Origin: Amphiscolops sp. MND2022
Lineage: Eukaryota
DNA length: 64,000 nt
NCBI GenBank assembly: GCA_964187785.1
Contig: OZ076412.1
Coordinates: 46,934,001 to 46,998,000 of the forward strand
Direction: 5' to 3'
The stretch's first letter is position 1. Each line of letters begins with the position of its first letter. The notes under the pieces are model-generated. The model searched no databases. It saw only the letters and a list, made by a program, of their open reading frames with translations, and had not been told where the DNA came from. Positions 16,563 to 46,766 of the stretch are shown piece after piece. Made by a program: the position numbers and the translations under genes.

Positions 16563-16718
16563 AATTTCGTTCTTTTCATCCAACTCACAAAGTTTTCACT
16601 GAAGTTTCAAATGAAAATTTTTTTTGGTAGAGAATTTCCGAAATTCTCTACCAAAAAAAAAGATTTCCATTTGAAACTTCAGTGAAAACTTTGTGAGTTG
16701 GATGAAAAGAACGAAATT
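16563..16718. repeat. Near-perfect palindrome of about 156 bp, centre 16639
   Basis: AATTTCGTTCTTTTCATCC... pairs with ...GGATGAAAAGAACGAAATT. Mismatches or indels only near the T/A run. Confidence 0.95.
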
Positions 16719-16919
16719 TTTCATGGTTGTTTCTGCCACAATATCCGCTTGAGGAGTATTTTTTCCATTCAATGTTCGTGAGAGATAACCTGCGCCTAAA
16801 AAACGTTTTTGATTGAGTCAATCAAAAACGTTTTTTAGGCGCAGGTTATCTCTCACGAACATTGAATGGAAAAAATACTCCTCAAGCGGATATTGTGGCA
16901 GAAACAACCATGAAAAATT
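16715..16919. repeat. Perfect 205-bp palindrome with a 1-nt centre (16817)
   Basis: The two arms are exact reverse complements around ...GATTGA-G-TCAATC... Confidence 0.95.
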
Positions 16920-17522: not shown

Positions 17523-19262
17523 TTTCGCCGGGCTTCCCCTGCGAGATGTCCGGAGTGCAGCATCGATGATCAGTTCAACTTGCTCCTTCCTACCGCCTTA
17601 GATCCGAAGATCCGAATCAAATCGTCATCAGTGGTACAGGCTTCAAAAACATTTAAAGTTACCATAAACTGAGATAATTGTTTTGAATGTTTGTTCTTGT
17701 TGCTAAATTTTTAGCATTCGTTTGTGTTATAGTGTTCGTTAATGTTAAATTGGATGCCCTATTGCCTTCATTGATTTAATTGTAACAACGGTCTGACCGT
17801 TGGCAAATCGAAAGAAAAAGAAAAACTTTGACCAAATAAATTAGTCTCTAGTGATAATGTTACTAGCTGACCCAAGCCAAGCCTTTATTTTTACTCCCAC
17901 TTTACCTTATAAGAGTGTACTGTAGTTTGATATAGCTTTCAAAATAATAGAGCATTTGTAGCAAGACTATGTAGGAAGCTTTCATAATCTGCATGATGAA
18001 TTATCCATGAAACAGCATACTGTGCTCATACTTCTTTTCATTGAGAGTTTATACTGCTTTGTGCAGTTCTTACTAAGCCACATATGCGGCTTTAGCTAAA
18101 AAACAGTATGATGACTACATACGTGCGGATAGTTATGCTACTTACCGCATTATGCGGAAGTATTGTAAAAACATCATGATGATTACATCCGTGTGCACGT
18201 TTATACTCCTCACCGCATTATGCGGAAATAACTCAAAACAGCATGAAGTTTAATTCATAATTAACATAATGAACAGCACCGATAAATTATACTGCATTAT
18301 GCGGTTCCCATAAAACAGTATATATGCGGATATGCTGACAAAACGTCATAATCCGCATATTGCTTCTACAGTAATTTACTGATGTAGCAGTTCTATATTT
18401 AGACCTTCTAGGGATATGACGTTATGAAGTATTTTTAATCCCTGACCCTAGAAACATGACGTGATGATGATTTGTATAAAATTGATTGTCATGCTACTAA
18501 AAATACCAACCAATAGAATCATTCGAAGCGTGTCCCTAAGAAATCATTATTCCCCACATGCATTCGAAAACAATTTCACGCAGAACACAGTCACTCAATT
18601 TCACAAACTACCCACAGTTCTCAAACTTGGCAGTTTTCTTCCTTTGTAAAGATAACTTCCACGATTTCATTTCACCAAAATATCTTTGTAATTCAAAGAT
18701 TTCTACACTCAACACTGTTTTCATCATGGGAAATAAAAGAAATAGACGTTCAAGAAGGACAGAATCTCAGTCATCGGACAGAGAAGAGAACACTTCAGAA
18801 ACAAGCTTCACTCAAGGTAATGCGACTTTAGTTGATGTTTCTGAAAATGTTTATAACATTTTTGACAGGAACTTAGGTAGCGAACTGACAGAACCTTCTC
18901 AAATCAGCAAAGAAATAGAAGTAATATCCCAGAGATTATTTGAACAGAACAGTAACAAGATGACACAAATCGAACAGCAACTGAATAGTATATTCGAAGA
19001 GATACTTAGAGAAATTAGAACAAGTAGAGAAAGCAATTTGGCAAATGATGAAGAGGATGCCGAGAACAATAGGCCAGGTCCATCTAACTCGAAAAATAGA
19101 AGTCTCAGGAACAATCACGCATCAAATACAACATTAGACAAAGACAAAAATCAGGATGATCGGTTTTATCCATCTGAAATGGGTGAATTAAGACAACCAA
19201 TGAAACACTAAACGAAACCATCATTATAAACGAAAACAGACAGGAGAATGCCGATCATCACA
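17523..19262 (+). repeat. 5' LTR of element A (about 1.74 kb)
   Basis: Nearly identical to 32393-34158. Starts TT (TG in the 3' copy) and ends CA. Has a 22-bp deletion near 19200 relative to the 3' LTR. Confidence 0.95.
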
Positions 19263-19273
19263 TGGTGACAGGA
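19263..19273 (+). promoter_or_regulatory. Primer-binding site TGGTGACAGGA (tRNA-Leu-like, unverified)
   Basis: Immediately follows the LTR-terminal CA. The same 11-mer is present in element B at 59209-59199. Confidence 0.8.
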
Positions 19274-20361
19274 CCTATCAAGAACATCCTGAGACAAAGC
19301 TCTACTAACTCTAACACAACAAATACAATTGGACCACACGCAACAACCCTTCTCGAACATCCTGAAACATCAGACCCTGTCAGCCAAATTGCATTAGCAA
19401 TTGAAAATCTGGCACGAAAAAACCCAGAACCCTCACTCTATCACCCGAAAAACACACTCACTTTTAACGGTAAATTAGAGAAAAATGAAAAGTTCGAGTA
19501 CTTTGAAGACCTTTTTCATACCACGCTCAGGATGCAACCTCATCTCACTGAAGAGATGAAAATAAACCATTTTCACGCCCATCTCAGAGGACTGGCGTTA
19601 AAAACCTTCAAAAACATACAACGCACACCTACCACAACACTTGAAGACATCTTGGTAGTATTCCGCAGAAAGTATGTCAAGCCTGAATCTAGTGCTTCAG
19701 CCAAACATAGATTCAACAGGCTTATGTTCCAACCCGAAAACCAGAAGCTGCCCGACTTTCTCGAAGATCTACAAGAGAGTGCTGAAAATGCCTTTGGGGA
19801 AGCAGCGCCACAGATGATCGAAAGTCTCATATACGCAAAAATGCCTCCCCATCTAAAGAAATTAATCAACCAAGCGTACCTTGAGAATGGTACCTACGAC
19901 CAAATTGTACGACACTTAGAACGCGAAATGGAACTCAATGGACTCGAAGCAGATGAGCCATTAGTCAAAACACAAATGACAGCTGTAAAACAGCAAACCA
20001 ACACATAAAACACTAAAAGTTCGACACAAAACACAAAATCTAAAACCAAAACTCCCAACACAGTTCCCAACAACACTCTACAAAACAACCAATGTCGTTA
20101 TTGCAAAGAAGAAGGTCACATGGCGAAGGAATGCCCAAAACTTGCAAAACGGCAAAAACTCGATAATTATCCAGATGCACCACGATGCTCCCATTGTAAC
20201 ACTACAGGACATGAAAAACCCAACTGTTACTTAGGAGCTAAAATGGAAAATCGTCCACCCAAATGGACACTGACAGAAAACCAACAAAAACTCATTGACG
20301 AGTATAAAAAATCAAACAAACCCATCAACCCACGAAACACGAAACCTTCAACATCGAAGGA

Positions 20362-20368
20362 TTTAAAC
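20362..20368 (+). promoter_or_regulatory. Candidate -1 ribosomal frameshift slippery heptamer T TTA AAC at the gag/pol junction
   Basis: X XXY YYZ pattern in the gag frame just before the gag stop. The -1 frame is open and continuous with pol ORF 20437. Confidence 0.75.
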
Positions 20369-23300
20369 TAATACAGCCACGCCTTCAAGCAGAAACACCA
20401 CAAAAACAACACTCTACTGATGACTGGCAGCATCAGTTGAGTCCCAAACCAACAAAAATTACAGTCTTTGATCATAAAACCAACAAAACCGACTCTCACA
20501 CTACAGACACATCAACTACAACTCCAGATACTCAAACGGAGGATCTATATGACCTACTCAAGGATGCTCCTGATAACTACATCCTACGACAAATCTTTGA
20601 ACCTGCAACCGAAACAGAAACACAAAATCAACACCCTAACACCTCACAACCTCAAGAAACACAAACTGATCACCTAAACACACAATCCACATCGACAACT
20701 CAAACCGACGAAGACGTCACCTCAGAATTAACCAAAACTCTCTTTTGTGCATCACCTGGAAAACAACCCCTCCTTGATAATGATGTTTTCAATCATCTAA
20801 CTACAGATGAAGGCAATAACATCATGTATTTGAACCTTTCTACAAACCTTACACTCAAAAAGAAACGTCATATGTACTATTTCCCAATGGATTTCGAAAA
20901 ACTAACTCTGGATGGACTCATAGATACAGGCGCCTTAACAAGCGCGATTTCAGAAGCTGATCTTAATAAAATCAAACGCTTATCAAACGAAGCAATCAAA
21001 GACACTGGCCCAGCACCTAACTTCCAAATTATGGTGGCGAACGGTCAGCTTGAACGCCCCATTGGAACCGTCCTCCTCGAAGTCGAGGTAGCAGATTTCC
21101 AATTTCAAGAGAATTTCATAGTAATGAAGACACTACCAAACCCACTTATTGGCCTGTGCTTCTTACAAAGACACAACGCTCTTTTCGATATTCGACAAGG
21201 AATCATTACATTCCCATACTTGTCAATGCAATTGCGTCCCGAACACACAACAAACACCCGAACAGCAACACCCTTGCTGACTGAAACCACTTATACCCTA
21301 CAACCCGGAGAAACTCTTGCAATTTCCAGCAAAATGCCACACTTGATAGACCACAATGCAACAGGAATTGTTACTCCGTCATCACACATGGAGGAACATG
21401 AGAGCATTTTCATTACCTCATCATTAAGCACAGTCAACAACAACGCAGTGGGTTACCAAGTGATCAATTTCTCGGATATGCCTTACACCCTTCCAGTGGA
21501 CACACACATGGCAGATTTCCGAGTCCTCACACCAGAACAAATCAAACACATCAAACCAGTTGATCCATCAACCCTCACCTTCATGATGCATCAACATATG
21601 GAGAACACCGACCTTTACCTCAACCAACTGATGAAAACAAACCATTCATCTGATGAACAAGAAATGTATTGGTTTCCGACACCTGAACAACCTGGGGATC
21701 CAGAAACATACACACCCATACAAAAACGAATTTACGACGAACTACTGGAGCTCAAACAACTTGAACAATTCAACCCAAACGACAACGCAGAATCTAGAAA
21801 GCAATTCCTTGACCATTTCGACTGGACCGATACTACCCTAAGCCCATTCGAAAAACAGCACATTGAAGACATCCCGGTGCAATACCATGATATCTTTGCC
21901 AGACATCGGTTTGATATTGGCACCAATAGAGAATTTAAGGTTAAATTGACTCCTAATGATGATAGGCCTGCCTACAGTCAAAGTCTCCCTACGCCAATCA
22001 ACCTCAAAGACGACATAACTGTTGAACTAGCCCTTCTCCATCGTTATGGTATCATCACAACATTACCATTCTCTAAGTACGCAAGCCCTTTTTTTGCCCA
22101 GAGAAAACCAAATGGACGCCTTCGTCTCCTGGTAGATCTGCGCAAAATCAACAACCTCATCACCCAAGATTACGTAAACAACAACCATCCAGTTAGCACA
22201 TTGTCAGATGCTGCACAGCACATGACCGGAAAGAAGCTTTTCTGCAAACTCGACTGCTCACAAGCATACCATTGTTTGCAGATGGCCGACTATCAGTCAA
22301 TACAAATGCTAGCTTTCAACTTCGCAAGCCGAACCTTTGCATACAGACGTCTTGCTCAAGGTCTTCGTCGTTCATTATCCGCCTTCTCTTCCTTCATGAG
22401 AGAATATCTAGACAAGGCCATTAAGGCTGACCAGTGTGCACAATACGTTGATGACATTGGCATAGCTGCGAACGATTCAACACAACTCTGCATCAACATC
22501 AAAACAGTCTTTGAATGCATCAGAAATGCAGGACTTAAGCTTACAATGGCTAAATGCCATTTTGGTGTCAAACAGGTCGACTTTTTGGGATGAACAATAA
22601 CCCCACAAGGAGTCTCACCACAAACCGAGAAGTCAAACTATTTCTTCAAAAACTCAAATTCCCGAAATCCAAAAAAGCCCTTCAAAGGTATATTGGGTTT
22701 CTTAACTACTACAGAAACTACATCCCTCGTTTATCAGAAAAACTGTCGCCTTTCTTCAAACTACTCAAAGAAACATCACAATTTTGCATACCAAACACCG
22801 TTTTGGACACATTTAAAGAACTAAACCAACAACTGGAGGAATCATGCAACCTTGCTCTCAAACAACCACTACAGAACAAACAACTCATTCTTATGACAGA
22901 CGCAAGTTTCACAGCAGCCGGTTATGCCATCATGATTGAAGATGACCCTAACCAGAAACTCCAATCCAGAAGAAAAACCTATGCCCCAATTGCGTTTGGG
23001 TCAAAAACGTTCAACCCAACACAACTCAAAATGTCAATTTACGCGAAAGAATTCTTAGCAATTTATTTCGCGTTTTTCGAATTTGAACACCTAATGTGGG
23101 GAAGCATCTTTCCTGTTATAGTCTTCACGGACAACCGTTCAGTAACACGCTTCTTTCAAACAAAAATAATACCACCACCCCTCTGGAACGCCTGTGACTA
23201 TGTACTGCAATATAACTTCGTCATAGCACACGTTGCAGGAGCTATGAACACAGCTGCTGATTTCCTTTCAAGAGCGGAAGTAAACCCGAATGAAAAACTC

Positions 23301-25354
23301 GAAATGAACATCCGAAATGATGTTGCAACCAAAGCAATCGAAGTCAATATTCAGTCCACAGGAGTTGCTGAGGAAGAAACTCTTTACATCCTTCCGGACG
23401 AATCCCCCACAGAACAGCAAATGTGGGAAGAGAAAAACACAATACGCTCTATGGCAAGAACGGAAACCCACAATGATCCAGAAAACGAAGTGTCAGACCT
23501 CTAAACTTTCCACAAACCCACAGCGGGCACAATCAACTACCGCGAAGGACACTTCAAAGACAACGCCAAAATCCGCTTGGAACAAAACAATGACCAAGTA
23601 TTACGCAATCTTCGATATAAACTTGAAGGTGAACCTTACGACGAAACAGAGTTTACGCAAGATTATCGCTACAAACACTATTTACAAAATATCACCAGAA
23701 TTGAAATTAAACAAGATGTCTTAACACGAAGATACTACAATGATACTGGGATGATATCACATTACCAGATACTCTTACCAAAACAACTACTAGATGAATT
23801 CCTTCATGCACTCCATGGACATAACGCAAATCATCCTGGAAAAACAAAGATGATCCAAGAAGCCCGGCAGAAGTATTACTATCCCTGCTTAGCCAAATAC
23901 ATTCGAACTTGGGTCACAAAATGCCAAATGTGTATACAAAATAAACGCATCAACAATGACCTCCTGAAAACAGAACTACTTACTTGCCCAGACTGGGATT
24001 TGGGCCCAGAAGACATTCTACAAATGGACATTCTCCCTAATCTCCCGACAAGCGGAGGTTATGACAACATCATCACAGCAATAGACGTGTTCTCACGCTA
24101 TTTGTTTGCCTATCCAGTCACCAGGATCACCGCCCCAGCAGTAGCAAAAGTCATTATGGATATTTTGTGCAAACACACATACCTACCCACAACAATCATT
24201 ACAGATATGGGCACTCAATTCAACTCACAGGTTACCAAAGAAGTTGCAGCAGTCCTAAACATAGAACTCAAACACGCAACGACAAAACATGCCCAATTAA
24301 TTGACTATTAGAACGTACCCATGCATCGGTTAAAGCGCATCTTAAAGCAGCCACTGGAGAATTCAGAAACAATTGGCATAAGTTTCTACCATTGGCAGTC
24401 TTGAACCATAATACAACCTACCATGCAACACTTGGTTGCAAACCTACACGGGTCTTCCATGGAAGAATCCCGCACAATATACTCGATTTCAAGTTGGGGT
24501 ACAATCCAAACCCTAGATTTCAACCCCAAACTGAGGTAGCAGAAGAGGTACAAAGACGGATTGCATTACTTCATGACCAAACAAAGAAAAACATTATGCA
24601 ATCCTACCTTAAATATAAAGCATACTACGACAGGAAAGCGGAAGCAGCACCCCTTACAACAGGGGATTATTGCTTTATCTTGAATCCGAAAGCAGACACA
24701 CAGGCAACCAAAATCCCCTTCAGAGATTTCCGCTGGGTTGGCCCTTACAAAGTCGAAAAAGTCCTACCGAATAACAATTACATTGTTCGTCGTTTGGGCA
24801 CAAATAAAACCCAATTGCTTCATCGTATACGACTACGTATATACATTCCACAAGCACCTCTAGCTGACAATTTTGTCAGAGAGTCTGAATGGCAAAAAGA
24901 AGATACACTTATCGCTCGAGATGACTTATATGCCCACACCTGGGACACAAATTTAGGATCGAGCCCATTTGACACTGACCATGAAATTAATGATCAGCAA
25001 GAAGACATGGTAGAATATGAGCCTACTTCTCAACCTGGAATAAACCGCCCTCCCACCCCCGATAATTCTCAAAACAGTGGGGGGACCCCAGCAGAACAAC
25101 CTGCTGTGACCGACAAAGAACCCCAGATAATTGATAAAATCATTACAAGAAACGAAAATCAAGAGCCCATACCAGAAATTTCAAGAAATCCAGAAACTTC
25201 CCAAGAAACCTCAACCCAAAAGTCACCAAAAACTCCCGAAAATAACCCAGAACATGATGCACTAGAAACACTAAAAACAGTTAACACGAGAGGTGAAAAG
25301 TACAACTTACGCCCGAACCCTAACCCTAACTACTCAGACTCATACAGATACTAA
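20362..25354 (+). pseudogene. pol: Element A pol (PR-RT-RH-IN, GPY motif), disrupted
   Basis: PR LIDTGALTS; RT YVDDIGI; RH TDASFTAAGY and TDNRSV; integrase HHCC plus DILPNL / DMGTQF / ERTH; WVGPYKV. Frameshift near 22590 and stops at 23502 and 24309. Confidence 0.95.
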
Positions 25355-25629
25355 AAAAGACAAAATCAAGAGACTCAAAGACTTTAACTAAACACAGTCT
25401 CCGTTTATCTTTTGCTCTCACATCTTTTCTCTTCACTTTTTCTTTCCCAATCAGTTACTTCAGTAACTGTTTTGAGAATTGATTTACTGGAATCAACAAA
25501 ACTAACTAAACCAAATCAGGTGTAACCAACCTGAAGCAAAGCAAACAAAGTATACAAAGAACAAAGCAACAAATAAATGGATTACAAGCAACACCGCAAT
25601 CTATAGAAACAGTAATAACTTGACGTCTC

Positions 25630-28600
25630 TCATTTACCACCGGGAGATGGTCTCTTCTTTATAGAAAGCTTCTTCGCAGATTTAGTTTGGTCAGGGGGTA
25701 GAAACGGAACCTCGCTGACGAAGCGCGGAACAGCCAAAGTAGCAGTAGCCAATTGCAGAGTCTGATCGAAACCTCTTGATGACCCACCGGAAGGCCCAAC
25801 CGGGATTGGCCCTGGAACAGCAAACTTCGAACTGGGTAGAGGAGTTTTGGGCGATTTACTAGTAGAAGAAGTGACCCGATGAGTTGGCGAAGAAGAAGTT
25901 GAACCAGAAGGTTTAGGATCAACATCCAGAGGAGTCCATGCCCTTTCTTCATCAGTAACCGTGCAGGTGAAACGGGACTCAAATTTATTCTGTAGTCGTA
26001 GTCGGCGAGATGAACAACAGGAACTAACGTCCCAAACAGAATAATCGAGATTTTCCAACAAACTCCTCCCTTTTCCGAGCAAGGAAAAAATAGGGGCAAC
26101 AGTTCTAGGATTGGAAAATAACACCAAGACGTTGGGAATGCCGACCAGAGAAGACTGAACACTCCTAACTGAAGAAGTGAAATCACAGTTGTCAGAAGCC
26201 AAGTCAGGTAATGCAACGGTGAAAACAGGTGGAATGCAAATAGAGCTAGAAATTCCAAGACAACACAACTTGAATACAGAGAATAAATTGGTGCGACATT
26301 GGAGCTCATAATAACCGGACATGAAGGTAACCCAGTCTGTATCGTACTGTACTTCGCAAGACCTGAACTTCTCAACAAAAGATCAGTACTCACTCAAGAT
26401 GAGTGGCTTGATGGAACTTGATATCCAGTCCCGCTGTATGAGGAAATCGCACAATTGGTCTGATTCTTCTTCGTAGTCCTCCTCTCGCCCATGTAATATC
26501 ACAGCTTCGTCGAAAACAGACATTCCTCGGATAAGCTTCGACTTGCGAATGCTGTGTTTCAGAAGCAAAGTACATAGACTTTTATAGAAACACAGTGCTT
26601 GTTCGACGAAATGGGTCGGTAGATCACTCTTATTAACTAAGTCGGCAAAGTCTTTACTACGAAGAAAATCGGTGACGCTTTTGAAAGGAAGATCAGAAGA
26701 CAAGTCAATAGACAAGAATCGGTCCCAGTCAGAGATGTCCCCCAAGAAAGAATCTGGCAAGATAGTCTGGAGCTGACAATACACAAATGTGGCGTAGGAA
26801 CTGTAGAGTCGGAAGCCGTCTGAGGCGATCCCAGTGACTCCTTTGAAAGCCGATTGGTCTGAAGCATTTTCAGATTAAGAAAAGGAACCAGACATTAAAA
26901 GAATGGAAAAAATAGAAAAGGCTAACAATGAAGAAGCACATTTCGTACTAGAAACAACTTGGCGGGATAAGTCTTGTCTTTAAATATCGTCTCATCCAAA
27001 CTTTTTGGCTGAAACATCAAAGATTGGCCATTAAGGCCATTAAACCAAGTCAGAACAACGATATCTGGAATTTCGGAAACGAATATTACCTCTTTCATGT
27101 GGTATTTGAAAGCCTTGATCCGGTCAGTGAGACGGAGATGAGCAACCACATGATGCCAATTCTGGTACAGTTGTCCAAGAAGAATAGCGCACTTGTCATA
27201 ACTGTATTCGAAGCTACAGAGCGCCTAAAAGAACAAATTCATGCCTGTGAGAACTAATAGCATTGGAAATGAACTTAAGACATGACGCATTATGATGTCT
27301 TCCAAATACAGTATAGGATGCTGAACAGCATGCAGCATAAGATATGCGGACTATGCGGATTAACCGTGAAACCAGCATAATTCAAGAAAAACAGTATAAA
27401 AGAATAAATCACGCTGTTTCAAGAGAAAACAGCATAGAAGAAAAGTTCATGCGATTTTCAGGAGAAAACAGCATAGAAGAAAAGTTCATGCGATTTTCAG
27501 GAGAAAACAGCATAGAAGGAAAGTTCATGCAACTTTCAGGAGAAAACAGCATAGAAGAATAGTTCATGCGATTTTCAAAAGAAAACAGCATAGAAGATAA
27601 GTTCATGCGGTTTTCAGAAGAAAACAGCACAAAGAAGTATCCAAGCGGTCTCAGTAAAAGAGTCAGCATAGAAGAAAAGTATATATGCGGTTTTTGGAAG
27701 AAAACAGCATAAAGGAATACTCATGCGGTTTTCGAAAGAAAACTACATAAAGAAGCACCCATGCAGTTCCCGTAATGGAATGGCATAGAAGATGTGATTA
27801 TGCGGTTTTCGGAAAAGGTGGCATAAGAAAATACCCACACAAGCGGAATAAAAACAGTATGAAGATAAAATCTATGCAGTTTGCAGAAAACAATGGATAA
27901 TGAAATGAAGAAACTATGGTCAAGATCCAACAAAGTATGCGGTAATATGCGGTTTTCTCAAGACGTCTTAGGAGTGTTGATTACGGTTAGGAAGGGACAT
28001 AATAATAGTTAAACAATAGAAATGCTTACTTCTCGAAGCTCCCGCAAGTTGTTGAGCCAAGCTGATCCCAAAGCTGTCCGAAGTTTCATCAAAAGAAATT
28101 GTAAAACGCTGTGTATGTCATAGCGGTCCAGGATTTTGACACATGGGCCCGCGAGCATTTTGTATAAATCTTCATAGCCGAAAGTAGCAACGACGCAAAT
28201 GGGTGTGGATTGGTTCAGCTCAGTAGTCAATGTGTTACTGACCCGTCCATCAAACCCGAGCAGAGAAAACACAGTGGGTGGATTGCTTGTAACAGCAAGG
28301 AAAGAAGAGATGGCATCGAGGACTTTTGGAGCTGTTTGGAGACTGTTGGGAAACTCGGAAAGGCAGATACTATTGTACACATTCCCGGACCAGAAGGCCA
28401 AATTAACCTGAGCAACTTTAGTCGAGGAAATGAATTGAAGGGAACACAAGCCTCGCTGACCAATAGATGTGACAGAATATCGTAGTAACTCGTGAAACAT
28501 GTAGACGAGTATTCCCTGTGAAACATACGAATTAAATATATGATAGATAGATGCCCAACTCAGTTAGATAACAAAAGATACTTACAAAAACACGTTCCTG

Positions 28601-30260
28601 TCTCCAGTCGTACTGCGGGAATCTAGTGGGCCCCTGTGCCTCGACATTCAAATTGGATAAGAGTGAAGTTAATAGGTCCAACTCTCCGCCAGACTGGAGT
28701 CCTAACAAGAGGAGCCTCATCTGTGAGCATGCGACTGATGAGGGATAAAGAATTTCTGTGTCTTTTGGCAACTCTCTCTGTCCTGGCAGCAGGTGACATT
28801 CGCCCAAAGTTGGAGTGATTGGAAACGTCTGCTCCGCTTTTTCCCGTGCTTCGTCTAGAGCAACTCCAGTTATCTCTCGCTCATTTTTGTCATAGAGTGG
28901 AAGTCCTGGTGTTTCTAATCTAATTCGATGCTCTCGAACCCAGTGGGCATCAGTACGGTAGTGCGATAAAATTTCGAGCGATCCTTTCGTCTTTAGAGAC
29001 AACTCTACTTGACACACTCTACAGCGCCACTTGTGAGGATTCTCGTTCGGGTCAGCTGGACGTGTGACGAAGAATTTGAACACGGGATGCTTTTTATACA
29101 TCTGAGCAGAAAGCTGCATTCGGGGTCTTGGTCTTTTGCTAACCACAACTTGTTCATCGGATGTTGTTTGGACCGGGTCAGAAGTTTCGGTGTTGTATGA
29201 ACGCCTGAGAGAGCGTCTTTTCCCCGGAGATGTAATTGGAGTCCGTTCTGGGGCACTACGTCGTTGATTTGCCCGTGTGGATTCACCCCCAGAAGGGCCC
29301 GTAGTGGGTTCGGATCTTTCAACAGCGTGCGCAGACATTGATTGCTCAAGCTTTGTACTGACAAGAGTTTCAAGTCTCTGCTCCAGTGCCTCTAAGTCGG
29401 AACATGTGACGAAATTGCCAAATTGTGTTACTGGAAGCGATTGAGCATTGGTAGCTGGTCCGCGGCTTTCTTGCTCGTTGGGGGCTCTCACTGCAAGTTG
29501 ACCTAAGTAACGTGTGGTAGGAGATGTTCGAGAATGGACCCCTTCCAACATGGGAGTAGTCGCCCGTGAGGAACATTCATCTGGTAGAGACTTTTTCTCA
29601 CCTGCAGGAGCGATTGAATTGAGGCAATCGGGTTGCTCTCCAGTCACATCAAGAACGAGTTGAAGATTAGAATCAACGGAAGTGGCAAGGAAACTAACAG
29701 GTTCTTTGGGACTTGTCATGCTGTGGTCAAACGAGTGTTTAATCCCGTCTTGGTCGAGAGTTACATTAACAGTTTCACAGAAAGAACGCTCTGGTTCAGG
29801 AGTAGATTGATGGAGGGGAACAACAGACGTCAAAACCGTCAATTCATTGGAAGATGGTTGTCTTTGGTGAAAGGATTGAGAATCGGTATGAGCTAGAACA
29901 CATAAAGAATTGGAAATAAAGATGACATAGGTCGATGAAAATCAACCTGAAAACGGATATTATCCGACTAAATTGTGGGAAACTGATCACTTCCTACTTT
30001 AAAATCAGAGTTAACTCGAAAAAGTGTTCACAACTTGAAACAGAAAATCCGAAAATGGACCTGTGGAGAGCGGATGTGAAAATGAAATTTGTTCAGCGGC
30101 GGAAACAGGAAGTCTTCAAGCGACACTTGTGAAAGTCCAATGTGAAACCAAATACCGAGATATTTTCATCCATTAATTAAAGGCTGAAAATATACAAACC
30201 TTGTGTTGGCAAATCGGTTCCCTCCTTGTAGCCAGACATCGTTTCACCCAGTGGATCCAT
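25630..30260 (-). CDS. Element A antisense cargo gene, six exons (30260-30200, 29892-28586, 28515-28030, 27224-27090, 27008-26927, 26858-25630), 1,099 codons; zinc-finger, hAT-transposase-like protein; one internal TGA at 26383-26385
   Basis: All five introns are GT-AG. Exon lengths sum to 3,300 nt in frame. Intron positions and phases match the element B gene. Finger CRVC-x16-H-x5-H. Confidence 0.85.
27340..27950. repeat. 39-bp tandem array (GAAAACAGCATAGAAGAAAAGTTCATGCGATTTTCAGGA) inside cargo intron 3
   Basis: About 5-6 well-conserved units from 27424, plus degenerate flanking units, each with a GCAT...ATGC inverted core. Confidence 0.9.
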
Positions 30261-30574
30261 AAGACAAACTGCGAAAGGCTGTAGTCGATTGCAAAACAAA
30301 GAGTCCGTGAGAATAGCAGTGTTGGAAGAATGAAAACCAAGTGAAGATAATTCAGGATAACGAATCAGGAAAGCGGAGTTGGATAATTCGAACGAGAAAT
30401 GTGAGAAACTAAAGATGACGGAACTACAAATGACTTGAAGACTCTGAAAAATGGTAAAAACTATGAAGACTGAGAATTAATAATGTAGATTGAAATTATC
30501 AAGAAATCAAAATTATCAAAGCAACTGGAAATAGAAGGCGTGGCAGTTAACGAGAAGGCAATAACGCAAATGGA

Positions 30575-30620
30575 TGACGTCAATAATGGCGTTTTCAGTG
30601 TATCTCAAATCTGATTGGTC
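30575..30620. promoter_or_regulatory. CRE-like palindrome TGACGTCA (30575-30582) and CCAAT box (GACCAATCAG on minus, 30620-30611) upstream of the cargo gene
   Basis: The same GACCAATCAG lies at a similar distance (about 330-350 bp) from the cargo ATG in element B. Confidence 0.5.
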
Positions 30621-31492
30621 GAGAGCAAGTACTCAGTTTCGCCATTTCTGCCATAATGACTAAATTGGAGGAATCCATACCATATAAGGAAACTGACAGA
30701 CTTTGCGTATTAACACGCAACACACCGCTGCAGTGAAAGTGCACTATGCTGTTCTGCATTAGAAACCGCATAATGGTCCAGCGCTATCGATCGTGAACAA
30801 CAATCTGTCATAGTATAGAGAAGAAAATGTAACAAGGCAGCATAAAGGGATTATGCGGGATTAAAAGTGAAACTGCATAAAGTGTTCATGCGAAAAATAT
30901 CAAAGACAGCATGGTGAAGTAATAATGGCAATATGAGAAATTATGATGCATTATGATGTTTTCTGTAAGCAGTTTATGATGTGAATCATTATTAACACTG
31001 CTGATTTGAATATTACACATTTACTAGTGAAAGAATGAAATTCCACACTTTTGAGAAAGATGATTCATACAACAAAGTGTGAAATCTTCACATGATGAAT
31101 CTGAATGGACTACAACCATAATGTATTTTGATGATGAGTAATTAAAATTCAGTTACCCTTTATGGGGTAGCTACCGGCGATATATGAAAGAAACTCTGGA
31201 AATCAATAGTTATTGATGATCAATTAAAGAAACTCGATGATGCTAGATTTCCATAAATTATTTGATAATTACCCAAAAACCCCGGGAAAAGGGTAACGCG
31301 AAAGTGTGTTGGAGCAATTTATATAAAACCCATAAACCTACAAAAATCTAGAAAACCTCACCATTTTGGTCCTAAATTTTCAGAAAACAGTTGATCTTCG
31401 CCTTACAACTTCCTAATCTTGTAGTAATTCTTGATTCAAAATTGTATAACAATTTGAACCGTTTATACCATTTGATTTCAAAAAACATAAAA

Positions 31493-32439
31493 ATGGACAG
31501 CACACCTGTGAGAAGAAACAATAACACGAGGGACCCAATGTTAATTGACACTGCACTGGACCTAATAAATATCTCCAGTAGCTCTGAGGAAGGATTTACG
31601 GTGGAACGTTTCTCCTTGCCCGAACTAGAAGATAGGTTCAGAGTTGCACCATCATCAATCACGAACATGCCAACTGCTTTCATGGGGTCGGCAGAGGCCT
31701 CATTATTCGTGACCAATTCAATTGATGCCAGGTCAACAGGATGTATAGACACAAGAGGAACGTCCATTGAAACTGAGCTGATGGATCTATTGAACGACAT
31801 ACCGGATAGTTCACCCACAACGTTCATCGATACCTCCGACGAAGAAATGAACCCCTTCCCAGAGGCTAATTTCGCGAATGTACAAAGGAACGCGTATGGT
31901 CGCCCTACTCAGAGAGTGTGCCCTATGCCCAGACAACAACAAGAGACACAACCTCCTAATGCGAACCTACCAACTATACCCAGCCGAACAAGCGCTTTTA
32001 CAGCGTATACAGCACCACAGCAGAGAACAACTGACCCGAATCCTCGTCCTACACAACAAGCACAGTATTTGCCGATGCCCATCCCGTTCTACCCTATTGC
32101 GTGGAACAATGTGGGATATGGGACATTGGGTCATAATATGCAACACCACCATCAAGCAACGTTCCCGCTCATAACGGAACCTTGTTGCAAATGAACCCTC
32201 CAGTCATGCCCGAAGTCGCAGGTTATTGCCCAGGTTGCACTAAAACCTATGACCAAATTGCAGTAGAGACATTGACCCACTACGTTGCTTGGTCCGAGTA
32301 TCCTGATGAAACAATCCGCGACAGAAACGTCAGATCAAGGGCTTTTGTGGACGGATTTGGAGCTGCGTTGATCTGCTTCAAAAATGCTGGACTGTCGCCG
32401 GGCTTCCCCTGCGAGATGTCCGAAGTGCAGCATCGATGA
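31493..32439 (+). pseudogene. Element A ORF3 (about 315 aa, unknown function), one frameshift near 32185, stop inside the 3' LTR
   Basis: ORFs 31391-32194 and 32182-32439 are together homologous to element B ORF3. Shared motifs: ISS.S.E.FTVE, N.YGRP, CxxC..TYDQIA, DRNVRSRAF, FKNAGL. Confidence 0.8.
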
Positions 32440-34158
32440 TCAGTTCAACTTGCTCCTTCCTACCGCCTGAGACCCGAAGATCCGAATCAAATCGTCATCA
32501 GTGGTACAGGCTTCAAAAACATTTAAAGTTACCACAAACTGAGATAATTATTTTGAATGTTTGTTCTTGTTGCTAAATTTTTAGCATTCGTTTGTGTTAT
32601 AGTGTTCGTTAATGTTAAATTGGATGCCCTATTGCTTTCATTGATTTAATTGTAACAACGGTCTGACCGTTGGCAAATCGAAAGAAAAAGAAAAACTTTG
32701 ACCAAATAAATTAGTCTCTAGTGATAATGTTACTAGCTGACCCAAGCCAAGCCTTTATTTTTACTCCCACTTTACCTTATAAGAGTGTACTGTAGTTTGA
32801 TATAGCTTTCAAAATAATAGAGCATTTGTAGCAAGACTATGTAGGAAGCTTTCATAATCTGCATGATGAATTATCCATGAAACAGCATACTGTGCTCATA
32901 CTTCTTTTCATTAAGAGTTCATACTGCTTTGTGCAGTTCTTACTAAGCCACATATGCGGCTTTAGCTAAAAAACAGTATGATGACTACATACGTGCGGAT
33001 AGTTAGTTATGCTACTTACCGCATTATGCGGAAGTATTGTAAAAACATCATGATGATTAACCCCGTGTGCACGTTTATACTCCTCACCGCATTATGCGGA
33101 AATATCTCAAAACAGCATGAAGTTTAATTCATAATTAACATAATGAACAGCACCGATAAATTATACTGCATTATGCGGTTCCCATAAAACAGTATATGTG
33201 CGGATATGCTGACAGAACGTCATAATCCGCATATTGCTTCTACAGTAATTTACTGATGTAGCAGTTCTATATTTAGACCTTCTAGGGATATGACGTTATG
33301 AAGTATTTTTAATCCCTGACCCTAGAAACATGACGTGATGATGATTTGTATAAAAATGATTGTCATGTTACTAAAAATACCAACCAATAGAATCATTCGA
33401 AGCGAGTCCCTAAGAAATCATTATTCCCCACATTCATTCGAAAAAAATCTCACGCAGAACACAGTCACTCAATTTCACAAACTACCCACAGTTCTCAAAC
33501 TTGGCAGTTTTCTTCCTTTGTAAAGATAACTTCCACGATTTCATTTCACCAAAATATCTTTGTAATTCAAAGATTTTCACACTCAACACTGTTTTCATCA
33601 TGGGAAATAAAAGAAATAGACGTTCAAGAAGGATAGAATCTCAGTCATCGGACAGAGAAGAGAACACTTCAGAAACAAGCTTCACTCAAGGTAATGCGAC
33701 TTTAGTTGACGTTTCTGAAAATGTTAATAACATTTTTGACAGGAACTTAGGTAGCGAACTGACAGAACCTTCGCAAATCAGCAATGAAATAGAAGTAATA
33801 TCCCAGAGATTATTTGAACAGAACAGTAACAAGATGACACAAATCGAACAGCAACTGAATAGTAAATTCGAAGAGATACTTAGAGAAATTAGAACAAATA
33901 GAGAAAGCAAGTTGGCAAATGATGAAGAGGATGCCGAGAACAATAGGCCAGGTCCATCTAACTCGAAAAATAGAAGTCTCAGGAACAATCACGCATCAAA
34001 TACAACATTAGACAAAGACAAAAATCAGGATGATTGGTTTTATCCATCTGAAATGGGTGAATTAAGACAACCATACATGCCAGTCGGAACTGCTAATGAA
34101 ACACTAAACGAAACCATCATTATAAACGAAAACAGACAGGAGAATGCCGATCATCACA
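32393..34158 (+). repeat. 3' LTR of element A (about 1.77 kb, TG...CA)
   Basis: Direct repeat of 17523-19262. Contains the ORF3 stop and an open 186-codon Gag N-terminal ORF (ATG at 33600). Confidence 0.95.
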
Positions 34159-34668: not shown

Positions 34669-36151
34669 TGTGATAATCCTCCACTTCAGAGTCTTCATTT
34701 GAAACTATTGTTTCATCTAATTCGAATCTATTTTGACAAAATGGTTTTGCTGGATTCCTTAGTTCATGCATATTTGATGCTCTGATAGGGTGACTATCTT
34801 CATTTTCAGAGTCTGAGTTATCATTTACTGATGCGTGAACTCCTATAGACCTATCTCTGGATCCCGATGGTTGAGTGTTTTGTGTTTCATTTGTGTTCAA
34901 CCTCGGGTTTGTTACTGTCGATAAGCGTTTGTTAGGTTTTATCTCTCAGAATCGCTTCTAATTTGTTATCCATTTCTTCTCTTTTCAATTCTATCATTAC
35001 TCTTTTGTTCCATTATTTGGGTCGAAACTTGTATCTCATTGCTAACTTGGCTGGGTTCATTCAACATGTTCTCAGAGTTTTTTTCACCTAAATTACTTTG
35101 AATAGCTGTATTATTATTAGTTAAGGTCACATTACCTGAAATTGGTGTCTCTGTCTGATTCCTCTCTATCTCCCACTCTGGGGATGGAGTTTCTAGCCTT
35201 CTAGATCGTCTATTTCTTTTATTTCCTATCTTTTCTCAGTTGAAAACGAATTGCAGTTATTGGGGAAGAATTTGCATTGATCCTTTTCTTTGGCAAAACC
35301 AAATTGGAAATGGAAAAAGATTGGGGAAGTGAAAATTTACAGAAGAGAATTGTTGATTTTAAAGTGACTGCACTTTAGTAGGGTTGAAAAAGTTGTGTGT
35401 TTTCAAGTTACCCTAGCTGTCTATAACAATCATGACATCCTCCCTTTTTATGGACATCACCCTCTGGGAACGTATAAATAGAATTACATCACAATTACTT
35501 CAATCTAATTATAGTACAAAGCCCCTAGAGGAATGACAATCAAATGCCTAACAATAAGGTCTAGGAAACCCTAGAAGAGAGTATGAAATTACTTAAGAAT
35601 ATTATTTGCATGACTAATCAACGCTAAAATTTACTACAGCATCAATTTGGAGAACAATACTGCTAAAACCGCATGATGACTAGTATACATTATACATCAA
35701 AACGCATGTTACCGCATGCAAGCGCTTATGCGGAAATACCGCATTCTGACGTATATACATTTCCACTCGAAACGTATGTTGACGCATAAACGTACTATCT
35801 TGAAATGTATGTTACCGCACAATGATCAAGACATATTGCCACAGTGTTTCCAAATGAGATTGTGAGTCACATATTACATAAATCTAAACTCCATGACTCA
35901 TCAACTTGAATAACGAACATGAAAAACTAAATCCCAATACAATCTAATATGTATTAAATCATCTAAAAGAACAAAATCAACAGAACTAACAACTTTACCC
36001 AAAATAGCATTTATACATGACATCAATAAAACAAATGCAAAACAAACATAACATATCATAAAACCAGTTTCAAAGTTTTACATTATTTCTAGTCCTCATT
36101 CACCTTTTCAAAGTTGCACTCCGGATCCCATGCAGGTGCTGGGCTGCAACA
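34669..36151 (-). repeat. 3' LTR of element B (about 1.48 kb)
   Basis: Direct repeat of 59210-60674. Confidence 0.95.
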
Positions 36152-36557: not shown

Positions 36558-37507
36558 TGTAACGGCTGCTTGCCCTGATCCTGCGCTGAGGCTTGACAAG
36601 CTTTACGCCGCCCTGATCCGTTGCTTAGTGCTGTGGACTGTCACTAAACAAATCCTGGTTTTCTTGTTTAAAGGACTGTATCTTTTGGCTTGATGGGTCC
36701 GATGTGACCCGTGGAATCTCCTGCGATTCCGCTTTGTACTGAATTGGATCCGATGTGATCCGTAACACACTTCCTTTCCTGTATCTTCACGCGCTCCGGC
36801 TCTCCAACTATGAGAGTAGCTACTTAGTCGCTCTGACTCTAGCGAAAAGTTGTGAAGATTGAGAAGTTGATTAATTAGTCTCGCGGTCCTGAGACCCAAC
36901 TTGACTATAGCTATTCAGTGGCGAAAATCTCTATCTAATAATGGTATAAATGTGGTTTACAATTCTACAGTAAATATAAGCAAATATTAGTTGAAATATG
37001 TTGTATAAATAAATGACATTTATTGCAAAAATGAAGTTATTGGCTAAGTAAACAACTATGTGGTGGTTTTGGCATGTTGGTTAGGTGGTCTAGAAAGTAT
37101 GTTTACACAATGTAAATATGATAAATGTCAACGGAGTTACATTTCCTTCAAGGTCAAATGAGAAAATAACATAATAATTAATACATCAAATTTGGGTAAT
37201 TCATGGGGTCCGACCTAGGTCACTTTGGGTGTTAATAGCTCGGAACCCAGGGGAGATACGGGGTTGGTTGTTCCTAGTGAAAAGTTAGGATAGCACCACC
37301 ACTATATGTGTGGCGAGTTTCAAGATGATTGATGAAGTGGTTCATCGGGACGGGGGGGTGGCCCAATTTGTCTCAGGCTCATTTCTCCTGAAACTCGTAA
37401 TTTTATAACTAAATTTTTGATAGAGTTTTCTAAGTGTTTTGAGTTACAAGTTTCATCAGTCACGTTCAAAGTTGCGTTTCTGATCTCGCAATTGACTGGC
37501 GTCAACA
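36558..37507 (-). repeat. 3' LTR of element C (950 bp)
   Basis: Direct repeat of 45810-46766. Confidence 0.95.
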
Positions 37508-40500
37508 TTGCCGGCCCTGTTTTTCTCCCGAAAAACACTTTCATAGAACAGGGGTGCTAATTTCACTACCGGTCTTTTGAGTTTTCCATCTTCCGTTTTC
37601 ACCAGCGCAGATCTCACTCGCCCATCGCTTCCATGATAGACTTCCAACACTCTACCCATCTTGTAGTGTGCTCTTTTCACATTCTCATCTACTATCCAAA
37701 CCAAATCAGTGACTTCAAAGTGTCTAACTTCTTCTTTATTCCATTTAGATCTCTCATTCCATTGGGGTAAATATTCTCTATTCCATCTGCTCCAGATCAT
37801 ATCTGCATATGCCTGTGATACTCTGAATACTCTTCTAAGATCTGTGTATCGCTGAGCGTCAGGAATAAATGAGGTTGCTGGACTCGCGCGTCCTAGCAGG
37901 AAGTGGTTTGGAGTCAAAGCTTCCAAATCTTCAGGATCATCACTGACACTAGTCAGAGGTCTCGAATTCAATATCTGCTCGACCAGGCACGTTGTTGTGA
38001 ATAACACATCATCTGTCAGTGTTCTGTTTCCTACAATTGCCATCATAGCTTTCTTGCAGCTTCTGACCATTCGCTCCCAAACACCTCCAAAATGCGGAGC
38101 TCCTGGGGGGTTGAACTTCCATTTTATTTGCTTTTGAGCCAAAGACTGCCTAATGTCTGATTGATTCCAAGCTTCTATCCATTCTCGCTTTTCTCTCGCT
38201 GCACCCACAAAACTTGTTCCATTATCACTTATGAGATTCGGTTTTCCTCTTCTTGCGATGAATCTCGTAATTGCAGCAAGACATGCGTCGGCTTCCAGGC
38301 TGGGCACAACTTCAACATGCACAGCTCTTGTTGTCAAACATGTGAATAGACAACACCATCGTTTCATTGATTTCCTCATGAATCTCACTTCGAATGGTCC
38401 AAAATAGTCTACTCCAGTGTTGGCAAATGGGAAAACTCTTTCTTCCAATCTTTCTTTAGGTAGGTCTGCCATGAAAGGTTGAACTCCTCCAACTTGTTGC
38501 TTTCTACACTTAACACACTTTAGCTTCACATTTCTAAGCGCGTTTCGGAGTCCAATTATCCAATAATTCTGCTGCAAAATACTGCGAACACACTCTGTTC
38601 CTTCATGAGCATCTTCAATCAATTTCCTCACTATTGGATGCTTCGCAGATAGCAAAAGTGGATGTTTCATTTCATAACTCGCATCAGCAAGACGTAGTCG
38701 TCCTTTTAATTGCATTAGGTTCTGATCGTCCATAAATGGTGACAGTTTGTTCAAGTGATCAGATGCAGCCATGGGTTTACCTACGGCCAATGCTTGATAC
38801 GTTGGACCAAAGCTTTCCATCTGGCTCTTCCTCAGAAACAGTCGGATCACTTGCTTCATTTCTTCTGTTACTACCACTTTTCCTTTGCCTTTTGATTTGA
38901 ACCGAAGGCAATAGGCGAAGATGCGGGTCATTCGTCTGAAAGAACCGAACTTCTCCCAATCAATGTTCTTTTCTTCTGGCACGACTTCAAAGACTTGCTC
39001 TATGTCTTCTGTTTTCTGCTGAAACAACTGTGGTGAAGTTTGTGGCCAAGCATCTTCTTTCTCTCGAAGCCATACCGGCCCTGTGAACCACTCGCTCTTT
39101 TCTAATTCATGGACGGATTTTCCTCTTGTTCCGATGTCGGCAGGGTTTAAGGTTCCTTCGACATGTCGCCACTGATCAATGGTTGAACTGTCAAGGATTT
39201 CGGCGACCCTGTTCGCCACAAACACCGGTTGTTTCTTATCAGCTTCATGCAACCATTGCAAAACAGTTGTCGAGTCCGTCCAAAAGAAAGTTCGTTCAAT
39301 TTGAATGTCGTGTTCGTCTACGATCAGTTGTTTTAATCGGGTTCCATACATAGCTGCTTGTAGCTCTGGTCGGGGAATTGATTGTTGCTTCATTGGCGCT
39401 ACTCGGCATTTCCCTACCACATAGGCAAGCTCTCCAGTTTGTTGATCTCGAAAGTAGGCAACTATGCACATGGCGTCCAGGGATGCATCGGCGAAAATAT
39501 GCAAGTCCACTACTTCAGCAATTTTCGACAAATACTTTCTTTTGATAGCCATTTCATTCATGTGACTCAACTCCGATGCCCAATCCTTGATTTCTACCTC
39601 GTCCTCTGGAGATAACTCTTCGTCCCACGATTGCCCATGTTTCTTCCAAAATGCGGAGCTCCTGGGGGGTTGAACTTCCATTTTATTTGCTTTTGAGCCA
39701 AAGACTGCTCAATGTCTGATTGATTCCAAGCTTCTATCCATTCTCGCATTTCTCTCGCTGCACCCACAAAATTTGTTCCATTATCACTTAGAATGATATT
39801 CGGTTTTTCTCTTCTTGCGATGAATCTCGTAATTGCAGCAAGACATGCGTCGGCTTCCAGGCTGGGCACAACTTCAACATGCCCAGCACTTGTTGTCAAA
39901 CATGTGAATAGACAACACCATCGTTTCATTGATTTCCTCATGAATCTCACTTCGAATGGTCCAAAATAGTCTACTCCAGTGTTGGCAAATGGGAAAACTC
40001 TTTCTTCCAATCTTTCTTTATGTAGGTCTGCCATGAAAGGTTGAACTCCTCCGACTTGTTGCTTTCTACACTTAACACACTTTAGCTTCACATTTCTAAG
40101 CGCGTTTCGGAGTCCAATTATCCAATAATTCTGCTGTAAAACACTGCGAACATACTCTGTTCCTTCGTGGTAGTTATTTTCATGCGCATCTTCAATCAAT
40201 TTCTTCACTATTGGATGCTTCGCAGATAGCAAAATTGGATGTTTCATTTCATAACTCGCATCAGCAAGACGTAGTCGTCCTTTTAATCGCATTAGGTTCT
40301 GATCGTCCATAAATGGTGACAGTTTGTTCAAGTGATCAGATGCAGCCATGTGTTTACCTGCGGCCAATGCTTGATACGTTGGACCAAAGCTTTCTATCTG
40401 GCTCTTCCTCAGTAACAGTCGGATCACTTGCTGCATTTCTTCTGTTACTACCACTTTTCTTTTGCCTTTTGATTTGAACCGAAGGCAATAGGCGAAGATG

Positions 40501-45403: not shown

Positions 45404-45441
45404 TTTTCTCTTCTTGGTTGAACTCAGTTCCCAAAGTCACA

Positions 45442-45681
45442 ATAGCCCAAGCTCCCAGAGACACTATAGCCCAATCTCTCAGAGACACAGTAGCCCAATC
45501 TCCCAGAGACACAATAGCCCAATCTCCCAGAGACACAATAGCCCAATCTCCCAGAGACACAATAGCCCAATCTCCCAGAGACACAATAGCCCAATCTCCC
45601 AGAGACACAGTAGCCCAATCTCCCAGAGACACAATAGCCCAATCTCCCAGAGACACAGTAGCCCAATCTCCCAGAGACACA
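45442..45681. repeat. 24-bp x 10 tandem array (ATAGCCCAATCTCCCAGAGACACA) in the element C 5' leader
   Basis: Counted directly; lies between the PBS and the gag ATG. Confidence 0.95.
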
Positions 45682-45790
45682 AAATCAGCAACTTCAAGAT
45701 CCAGACACTTGTTCTTCTTGGGCAATCTTCTCAGTTGTCCACCAACGAGTCGTCTTCGTCTTCTAGTCCGGGTCGTCCACCAACGAGTTG

Positions 45791-45807
45791 TCCGGGTCGG
45801 CGGACCA
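45791..45807 (-). promoter_or_regulatory. PBS of element C (TGGTCCGCCGACCCGGA, tRNA-Tyr-like)
   Basis: Starts 2 nt after the 5' LTR; resembles the tRNA-Tyr PBS TGGTCCTTCGAGCCGGA. Confidence 0.6.
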
Positions 45808-45809
45808 AA

Positions 45810-46766
45810 TGTAACGGCTGCTTGCCCTTATCCTGCGCTGAGGCTTGAAAGCTTTACGCCGCCCTGATCCGTTGCTTAGTGCTGTGGACTGTCACTAAAC
45901 AAATCCTGGTTTTCTTGTTTAAAGGACTGTATCTTTTGGCTTGATGGGTCCGATGTGACCCGCGGAATCTCCTGCGATTCCGCTTTGTACTGAATTGGAT
46001 CCGAAGTGATCCGTAACACACTTCCCTCCCTGTATCTTCACGCGCTCCGGCTCTCCAACTATGAGAGTAGCTACTTAGTCGCTCTGACTCTAGCGAAAAG
46101 TTGTGAAGATTGAGAAGTTGATTAATTAGTCTCGCGGTCCTGAGACCCAACTTGACTATAGCTATTCAGTGGAGAAAATCTCTACCTAATAATGGTATAA
46201 ATGTGGTTTACAATTCTACAGTAAATATAAGCAAATATTAGTTGAAATATGTTGTATAATTAAATGACATTTAAAGCAAAAAATGAAGTTATTGGCTAAG
46301 TAAACAACTATGTGGTGGTTTTGGCATGTTGGTTAGGTGGGCTAGAAAGTATGTTCACACAATGTAAATATGATAAATGTCAACGGAGTTACATTTCCTT
46401 CAAGGTCAAATAAGTAAATAACATAATAATTAATACATCAAATTTGGGTAATTCATGGGGTCCGACCTAGGTCACTTTGGGTGTTAATAGCTCGGAACCC
46501 AGGAGAGATACGGGGTTGGTTGTTCTTAGTGAAACGTTAGGATAGCACCACCACTATATGTGTGCCGAGTTTCAAGGTGATTGATGAAATGGTTCATCGG
46601 GACGGTGGGGGGGGGTTTGGCCCAATTTGTCTCAGGCTCATTTCTGCTGAAACTCGTAATTTTATAACTAAATTTTTGATAGAGTTTTCTAAGTGTTTTG
46701 AGTTATAAGTTTCATCAGTCACGTTCAAATTTGAGTTTCTGATCTCGCAATTGACTGGCACCAATA
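45810..46766 (-). repeat. 5' LTR of element C (957 bp)
   Basis: Direct repeat of 36558-37507; the outer terminal dinucleotide is mutated. Confidence 0.95.

Follow-up and report, generated by a model that had tools for sequence, protein, structure and literature searches.

Within 64,000 nucleotides (nt) of the Amphiscolops sp. MND2022 genome (contig OZ076412.1, positions 46,934,001 to 46,998,000; hereafter the window, part of a 1.07-Gb eukaryotic assembly), two related Ty3/gypsy long terminal repeat (LTR) retrotransposons of ~16 kb each, elements A and B, both carry what is very probably a real spliced gene of six exons, antisense to pol. The encoded protein looks like a catalytically dead hAT transposase, and the full explanation that we favour, to which we give a probability of roughly 0.55, is that this transposase would have been retained as a DNA-binding regulator of the element. 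The layout is alike in A and B: gag-pol, the antisense gene, ~1.2-1.4 kb of intergenic sequence, a sense open reading frame (ORF) that we call ORF4, and the 3' LTR, which ORF4 enters.

In the two copies, the gene is composed as follows.
30200-30260, minus strand: A exon 1, 61 nt, with its ATG at 30260 and phase 1 at its end
28586-29892, minus strand: A exon 2, 1,307 nt, with a long Ser/Thr/Pro low-complexity stretch, a basic patch, a CxxC...H...H zinc finger and a helical region
28030-28515, minus strand: A exon 3, 486 nt, with a predicted RNase H-like core equivalent to Hermes 153-267 (modelled from the homologous exon of another copy)
27225-28029, minus strand: A intron 3, 805 nt, includes a CCGCAT-bearing tandem array of 39-nt units
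27090-27224, minus strand: A exon 4, 135 nt
26927-27008, minus strand: A exon 5, 82 nt, phase 1 at its end
25630-26858, minus strand: A exon 6, 1,229 nt, with a predicted all-helical region (Hermes 368-609 equivalent), a basic disordered tail and an in-frame TGA at 26385
48816-48882, plus strand: B exon 1, 67 nt, as against 97 nt among close relatives
49144-50444, plus strand: B exon 2, 1,301 nt
50594-51078, plus strand: B exon 3, 485 nt, with a frameshift and a stop
51154-51288, plus strand: B exon 4, 135 nt
51362-51443, plus strand: B exon 5, 82 nt
51444-51931, plus strand: B intron 5, 488 nt, includes a CCGCAT-bearing tandem array of 33-nt units
51932-53046, plus strand: B exon 6, 1,115 nt, with one in-frame stop

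The exons of A add up to 3300 nt, that is, 1,099 codons plus a stop, and are separated by five introns, all GT-AG, in phases 1, 0, 0, 0 and 1; those of B add up to 3185 nt, again with GT-AG at every intron. The sequence-only reading, which first proposed this six-exon gene antisense to pol, is borne out in its architecture: the exon boundaries are reproduced in both copies, exon 4 measures 135 nt and exon 5 82 nt in each, and the last junction does create a Tyr codon (T/AC in A, T/AT in B). It missed that both copies are broken, and it put no name to the protein. The 1,099 codons of A are right as a sum of exons, but the TGA in exon 6 interrupts the reading frame, and in B exons and introns hold but the frame is not open (exon 3 is frameshifted at 485 nt, and exons 3 and 6 contain stops), so that the phases attributed to both copies are valid for A and, in B, exon by exon only. 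Translated comparison of A with B finds homology confined to the exons (33-51% identity per block). In the window copy, intron 4 of A has 81 nt and contains no stop; it has 73 nt in the two other A copies that allow it to be read.

Further copies were compared with chance expectation. Of 6,053 candidates, 149 were scored and listed as matches to exon 6; twenty of these, 58-93% identical to B, were hand-picked and one, L029, which consists of exon 6 alone, was left out, giving 19 for analysis. With exon ends projected by homology from protein alignments, unrefined, 146 of the 152 ends of introns 2-5 in these copies fall on GT or AG, the background being ~6% of positions per dinucleotide. Adding intron 1 (whose ends were searched for, not blind) and one 1-nt adjustment brings this to 185 of 190, and A-type partial loci (n=20, including the window copy) have 90 canonical ends among 93 readable, all of these counts coming from copies that share ancestry and not being independent events. 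Intron length runs from 62 nt up to 946 nt, that of exons 4 and 5 is constant, and retention would disrupt the frame for 90 of the 95 introns; in eight of the 19 copies the phases are correct, the frame is stop-free and every intron is GT-AG (1,072-1,100 codons). That nothing is spliced, the pieces being separate ORFs or decayed exon-like remnants, is hard to credit: A and B are admittedly both broken, and splicing is read here from sequence, but GT and AG sit at fixed codon positions despite saturated synonymous sites and such a spread of intron lengths, and a clade of ~20% identity again has three of the intron positions and the exon of 82 nt. Intron conservation, originally claimed for A and B, thus extends well beyond them, to the 19 further copies and to this far clade.

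The exons also bear the mark of selection. Across eight lineages compared, synonymous sites are saturated and proteins are 38-76% identical; two mid-distance pairs have a ratio of nonsynonymous to synonymous substitution (dN/dS) of 0.06, five young pairs one of 0.12-1.17 (frameshifted copies left out), and high values in young pairs are what is expected where post-insertion decay dominates. On these comparisons, the exons are under strong purifying selection over ~740 codons. Short introns are 46-65% identical between lineages, versus 45-58% in shuffles. For the sequence-only reading, exons no more conserved than introns would have spoken against the gene; between lineages this does not hold, exons being selected and short introns lying near shuffle level. 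An indirect sign of antisense transcription may be seen in the hexamer AATAAA, which, in ten representatives, is depleted on the gene strand (2 occurrences vs 11.1 +/- 3.3 expected) and not on the genomic-RNA strand (34 vs 29.5). Intron 1 stays within 257-307 nt (e.g. 2274-2538 in copy L021, 30199-29893 in the window), it shows conserved blocks across B-type lineages, and in a mid-distance pair it is far more conserved than fourfold sites (16/251 vs 95/277 differences). A cis element may reside in it.

In this genome the family has grown very large, with copies over all large contigs, and a profile-free search of 1.84 billion representatives returned 207 exon-6 relatives. One of them, P0144, is ~20% identical in exon 6 and has many near-identical copies in the same genome. 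In L042, a single copy of this far clade, what looks like the start of ORF4 is followed by the antisense gene and then by pol, on the opposite strand and 46-54% identical to that of A and B. Its introns equivalent to 2, 4 and 5 are at the same codon positions and phases, its exon 1 also ends in phase 1, and its 82-nt exon 5 is matched by length, phase and position, without detectable sequence similarity. In L042 (regions 1003-1938 and 2693-3313) intron 3 is missing, exons 3 and 4 being merged as one 621-nt exon (486 + 135), and the low-complexity 5' part apparently contains two or more extra introns. The antisense gene is long-term cargo and no one-off capture: of 20 loci, 19 have pol antisense to it and directly downstream, the identity of exon 6 rises and falls with that of integrase (r 0.62, 15 copies) and the far clade shares the layout.

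Another relative, P0123, finds a best identity of only 29% in this genome (among 100 scored places) and is probably from another species; the gene family itself probably reaches other species. P0122, P0123 and P0134, all distant exon-6 relatives, sit on short public contigs. Cluster records for 20 relatives yielded no informative name or taxon. No full-length spliced relative was found among longer proteins (one exon-6 query and a distant-relative profile), which is weak evidence. Library matches with N-terminal extensions, considered as possible spliced products, were rejected as intron read-throughs by gene callers; JGI metagenomes gave one weak and probably unrelated locus (L041), and viral contigs none. 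Matches ~15.0-15.2 kb apart on two contigs (C13 at 16095105, 16110266 and 16125427; C6 at 25841910 and 25856912) suggest head-to-tail tandem elements with common LTRs.

Since LTR retrotransposons pass through a spliced RNA, the genes they carry are thought to be intron-free. With a five-intron gene maintained over deep divergence, nature itself puts to the test whether introns survive according to strand. We propose that a hAT transposase gene with introns was acquired, in antisense orientation, by an ancestral element and that its introns, lying opposite the genomic RNA strand, would be left by the spliceosome and inherited through reverse transcription by each copy. This escape from splicing, which the sequence-only reading had put forward, is something we infer; the logic is sound and fits the intact introns of A- and B-type copies, among which intron loss is absent, but the far clade has no intron 3 and, because of this, intron loss or gain does occur inside this retrotransposon family. 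ORF-based annotation displays such genes as fragments only, and similar cases may be hidden elsewhere.

What the gene encodes is suggested by structural models of exons 3 and 6, folded separately. The exon-3 model (from the homologous exon of another copy) reads as an RNase H-like core that maps to Hermes 153-267 and the exon-6 model, all-helical, maps to Hermes 368-609 (insertion and C-terminal part), which places both in order on the Hermes hAT transposase, behind a BED-like zinc finger; structural scores vs Hermes are each modest. The finger, in exon 2, has an invariant W-x-C-x-x-C...H...H that is also present in the far clade, and matches zf-BED at E 0.25 in 1 of 13 members only. A protein language-model search also indicates hAT, naming FAM200 and GTF2IRD2 types. 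Other searches returned little: Pfam gave no significant family for single exons or alignments, PDB by sequence no match below E 0.1, Foldseek with the exon-6 model none at E <= 0.001 in PDB and viral models (Hermes lying outside the scope of its second look), and an atlas look-up with exon 3 a top score of 0.83 to something unrelated. These models make it probable that the protein is a hAT transposase in origin. A gene that is real and spliced but of other descent, be it one captured from the host or one for a different protein of RNase H fold, with Hermes matches that are generic, seems unlikely: two separately folded exons and the language-model search agree on hAT, the parts following the CxxC...H...H finger in the expected order and at the expected spacing, and integrases cover only ~80 residues of the exon-3 model vs 96-142 for Hermes.

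The catalytic residues of Hermes are D180, D248 and E572 (PMC6027215). Here, with equivalence taken from aligned ranges and not from residue-level superposition, the strand-1 Asp position is Q in 75 of 98 rows and the strand-4 Asp position is G in 51, D in 25 and N in 17; in the region expected for the Glu no column is acidic at >=70%, and the third catalytic position was not placed. On these alignments the two placed Asp positions are degenerate, a hAT catalytic triad is not found, and the protein looks like a catalytically dead hAT transposase. hAT transposases also feature a CxxH; vs this, no conserved C or H was found beyond strand 5. Exon 4 has an invariant W, not positioned on the structure (the hAT reference residues are R318/W319). 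No inverted repeats of >=40 nt flank the gene, short terminal inverted repeats (TIRs) being unsearched and such as would have decayed; a hAT element would be recognised by TIRs and an 8-bp target duplication. Hydropathy of the antisense exons, viewed as a possible envelope, peaks at 1.83, within the modelled globular core.

How such a protein might serve its element is the more conjectural part of our explanation. An internal promoter beside ORF4 would produce a spliced mRNA and, from it, a protein of ~1,070-1,100 residues, a product for which conservation argues. The protein would keep the hAT scaffold (zinc finger, helical region, RNase H-like core, insertion domain, C-terminal region) and, with its catalytic acidic residues lost, would not cut DNA. 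It would be a nuclear, sequence-specific DNA binder that activates its own element or counters its silencing, by binding the short motifs that are repeated in the LTRs, in the long intron and in the promoter region between the divergent genes.

Candidate targets exist. The putative promoter region is the following.
30261-31492, no strand assigned: intergenic region of A between the divergent gene and ORF4, a putative promoter where CCAAT- and TGACGTCA-like sites occur as well as copies of CCGCAT

In nine B-type lineages, CCGCAT, carried by 32-33-nt tandem units, is ~20-fold enriched in intron 5 (45 vs 2.4 expected) and in the 1.2 kb upstream of exon 1 (75 vs 3.5), and is absent from introns 1-4 (zero copies). 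Each LTR has 3-8 copies, and gag-pol 0-1 per 6 kb. In A, where intron 5 is short, the array is in intron 3 and consists of 39-nt units; arrays have therefore arisen or moved at least twice. The far-clade copy L042 has no array, with five upstream copies of a related but different motif. The repeat units also contain TGACGT, a CRE-like (cAMP response element) site, making host factors a real alternative. A short motif tandemly amplified in non-coding parts of the element is what VANC/TnpA-type systems have. VANC targets are tandem repeats in introns of transposable elements (TEs) and differ between families (PMC5735166), and the BED domain of Hermes binds short repeats in its own transposon ends (PMC10368747). 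By analogy, the protein may work like VANC or TnpA, and we would put a self-regulator role through these particular repeats at even odds. A bolder version is tentative, and we lean against it: a hAT transposase, of class II, would have been domesticated by a class I element, to which it would now supply a multi-exon factor that activates or counters silencing in a sequence-specific manner, its introns, kept through reverse transcription by the antisense orientation, serving as landing pads for amplified motifs, and protein and motif would diverge together across the clades of a radiation in more than one host species.

The same gene, with the same origin, could instead act at integration or nuclear import, by tethering the cDNA/integrase complex or aiding nuclear entry. 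A hAT scaffold that includes a finger for binding DNA, along with basic patches, would suit this, tandem copies ~15 kb apart could reflect targeting near own copies, and nuclear-import roles have been proposed for plant antisense ORFs (PMC7264820). We consider it rather improbable: the enriched motifs are also found in an internal intron and the promoter region besides the LTRs, the gene, which is unfused to pol, is preceded by a divergent upstream region of its own, and copies are spread over all large contigs. Transposase-derived binders can also repress. Copy-number control by a self-repressor protein, or by the antisense transcript via double-stranded RNA, would fit with convergent transcription with pol, which could yield such RNA (PMC7264820; compare the intron-containing antisense RNA of TART, PMC1636488), but a role of the RNA alone leaves protein-level selection over ~740 codons unexplained and a very large family fits a factor that helps the element; repression is the least probable of the alternative functions. 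Regulation in the element's favour by a dead hAT transposase remains the explanation that we prefer.

The carriers themselves have two LTRs, a primer-binding-site (PBS)-like site, 5-bp duplications and, by Pfam, the Ty3/gypsy order gag, protease, reverse transcriptase (RT), RNase H, integrase.
17523-34158, plus strand: element A, LTRs ~1.75 kb, target-site duplication AGTGA on both flanks
17523-19262, plus strand: A 5' LTR, 1,740 nt, ends CA, contains the first ~540 nt of the gag frame
19263-19272, plus strand: PBS-like sequence with TGG start, adjoining the LTR within the gag frame, identical 10 nt in B; PBS role suggested by position
18726-25354, plus strand: A gag-pol (Ty3 capsid, protease, RT, RNase H, integrase; Pfam), with frameshifts and stops
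32393-34158, plus strand: A 3' LTR, from LTR comparison
60674-34669, minus strand: element B, LTRs ~1.47 kb, with a Bel/Pao element nested inside
59210-60674, minus strand: B 5' LTR, from LTR comparison
53227-59776, minus strand: B gag-pol, broken (Pfam and frames; ends approximate)
34669-36151, minus strand: B 3' LTR, target-site duplication GAAGT
36558-46760, minus strand: Bel/Pao element in ORF4 of B (ends approximate), outside the finding

LTR pairs are 96.8% (A) and 94.5% (B) alike, and because they differ at only 32/1,740 and 50/1,459 aligned positions the insertions are fairly recent, yet decayed. The 5' LTR of A begins TT instead of TG, TG...CA being otherwise the LTR-end pattern. A tandem LTR-internal-LTR interpretation of 32395-34158 was ruled out, as the target duplications make the entire stretch LTR. 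The gag frame opens ~540 nt within the LTR and crosses the LTR end and the PBS-like site (18726-19272 in A, ~59776-59200 in B); each 3' LTR therefore holds a second copy of the gag N-terminus. Within the nested Bel/Pao element, 1.56 kb are duplicated (38086-39650 and 39645-41227), and the region of its first ORF contains a tandem repeat of 24 nt (45381-45740). Just left of A, at 16563-16919, are adjacent near-perfect palindromes, one with 102-nt arms of 100% complementarity, and decayed Bel/Pao-like fragments occupy ~6300-9100 on the minus strand (DUF1759, E 8.5e-4).

ORF4, the other accessory frame, is divergent from the antisense gene and has a conserved N-terminal acidic motif and C-terminal CxxC region.
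31493-32420, plus strand: A ORF4, in two frames, crossing a purine-rich tract into the 3' LTR (end approximate)
~47400-46760 and 36557-36111, minus strand: B ORF4, split by the nested Bel/Pao
3-392 of L042, sense: ORF4-like frame of the far-clade copy

No Pfam family and no transmembrane segment were found in ORF4 (maximum 19-residue hydropathy 0.77 and 1.13 in the two frames of A), and an errantivirus-like envelope, as ORF4 or as the antisense gene, was rejected on hydropathy.

How does this compare with known systems? The element is a Ty3/gypsy retrotransposon and a member of the antisense-ORF class, and its gene is no active hAT transposase. As in the aORF-3R class, the gene lies between pol and the 3' LTR, antisense, conserved and in most copies. 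The plant Ty3/gypsy elements Grande (gene23), RIRE2, Retand and PvRetro13 and the fungal Boty likewise have extra antisense ORFs there, conserved and in most copies, whose origin and function a 2020 review called unknown (PMC7264820); a probable hAT origin for one antisense accessory gene bears directly on this. An upstream promoter was shown for Grande and is predicted here, and Retand ORF4 has a Transposase_28 domain (PMC7264820), for which Pfam gives no match here. The review, in the part drawn on here, describes ORFs, not multi-exon genes, and urges a search for antisense, spliced transcripts (PMC7264820), whereas we find five introns, ~1,080 residues and a whole hAT-like scaffold. A full-text literature search, with most subscription papers and Repbase records outside, listed nothing whose title or opening of the abstract describes an LTR retrotransposon with a multi-exon protein gene in antisense, let alone one of five introns, or with a gene derived from hAT.

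As in Hermes, a zinc finger, here BED-like, would precede a predicted RNase H-like core with a large helical insertion and a C-terminal region, in the same order. Unlike in hAT transposases, the catalytic Asp positions are degenerate and the N-terminal region is long and of low complexity, and the gene is inside a class I element with LTRs, 5-bp duplications and high copy number, with no sign of transposon ends of its own. Domesticated hAT-derived proteins are a known type, as in ZBED. Spliced antisense genes for nuclear regulators in LTR elements also have a precedent in HTLV-1 HBZ, a short bZIP with one intron and a 3' LTR promoter; the present gene differs in its predicted internal promoter region, five introns and transposase-like scaffold. 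An HTLV antisense promoter is mentioned in PMC7264820. Closer in its introns is TART, with antisense-strand spliceosomal introns similar in size and spacing between subfamilies, but TART is a non-LTR element, and no long ORF was found in its spliced antisense RNA (PMC1636488).

A functional likeness may exist to VANC of VANDAL and TnpA of Spm, which are TE-encoded regulators with introns (here proposed) and have short motifs in tandem in their own introns and upstream (PMC5735166; bioRxiv 10.64898/2026.08.24.746577). TnpA derives from a transposase, a hAT transposase being the proposed source here, and transposase-derived regulators have been put forward as a route to self-expression or anti-silencing (bioRxiv 10.64898/2026.08.24.746577). 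VANC and TnpA are carried by plant DNA transposons and the present gene by an LTR retrotransposon, and the likeness that we propose is one in manner of working. If the protein does bind the repeats, self-activation of the VANC/TnpA type would extend to retrotransposons, which could help to explain a very large family in a 1-Gb genome.

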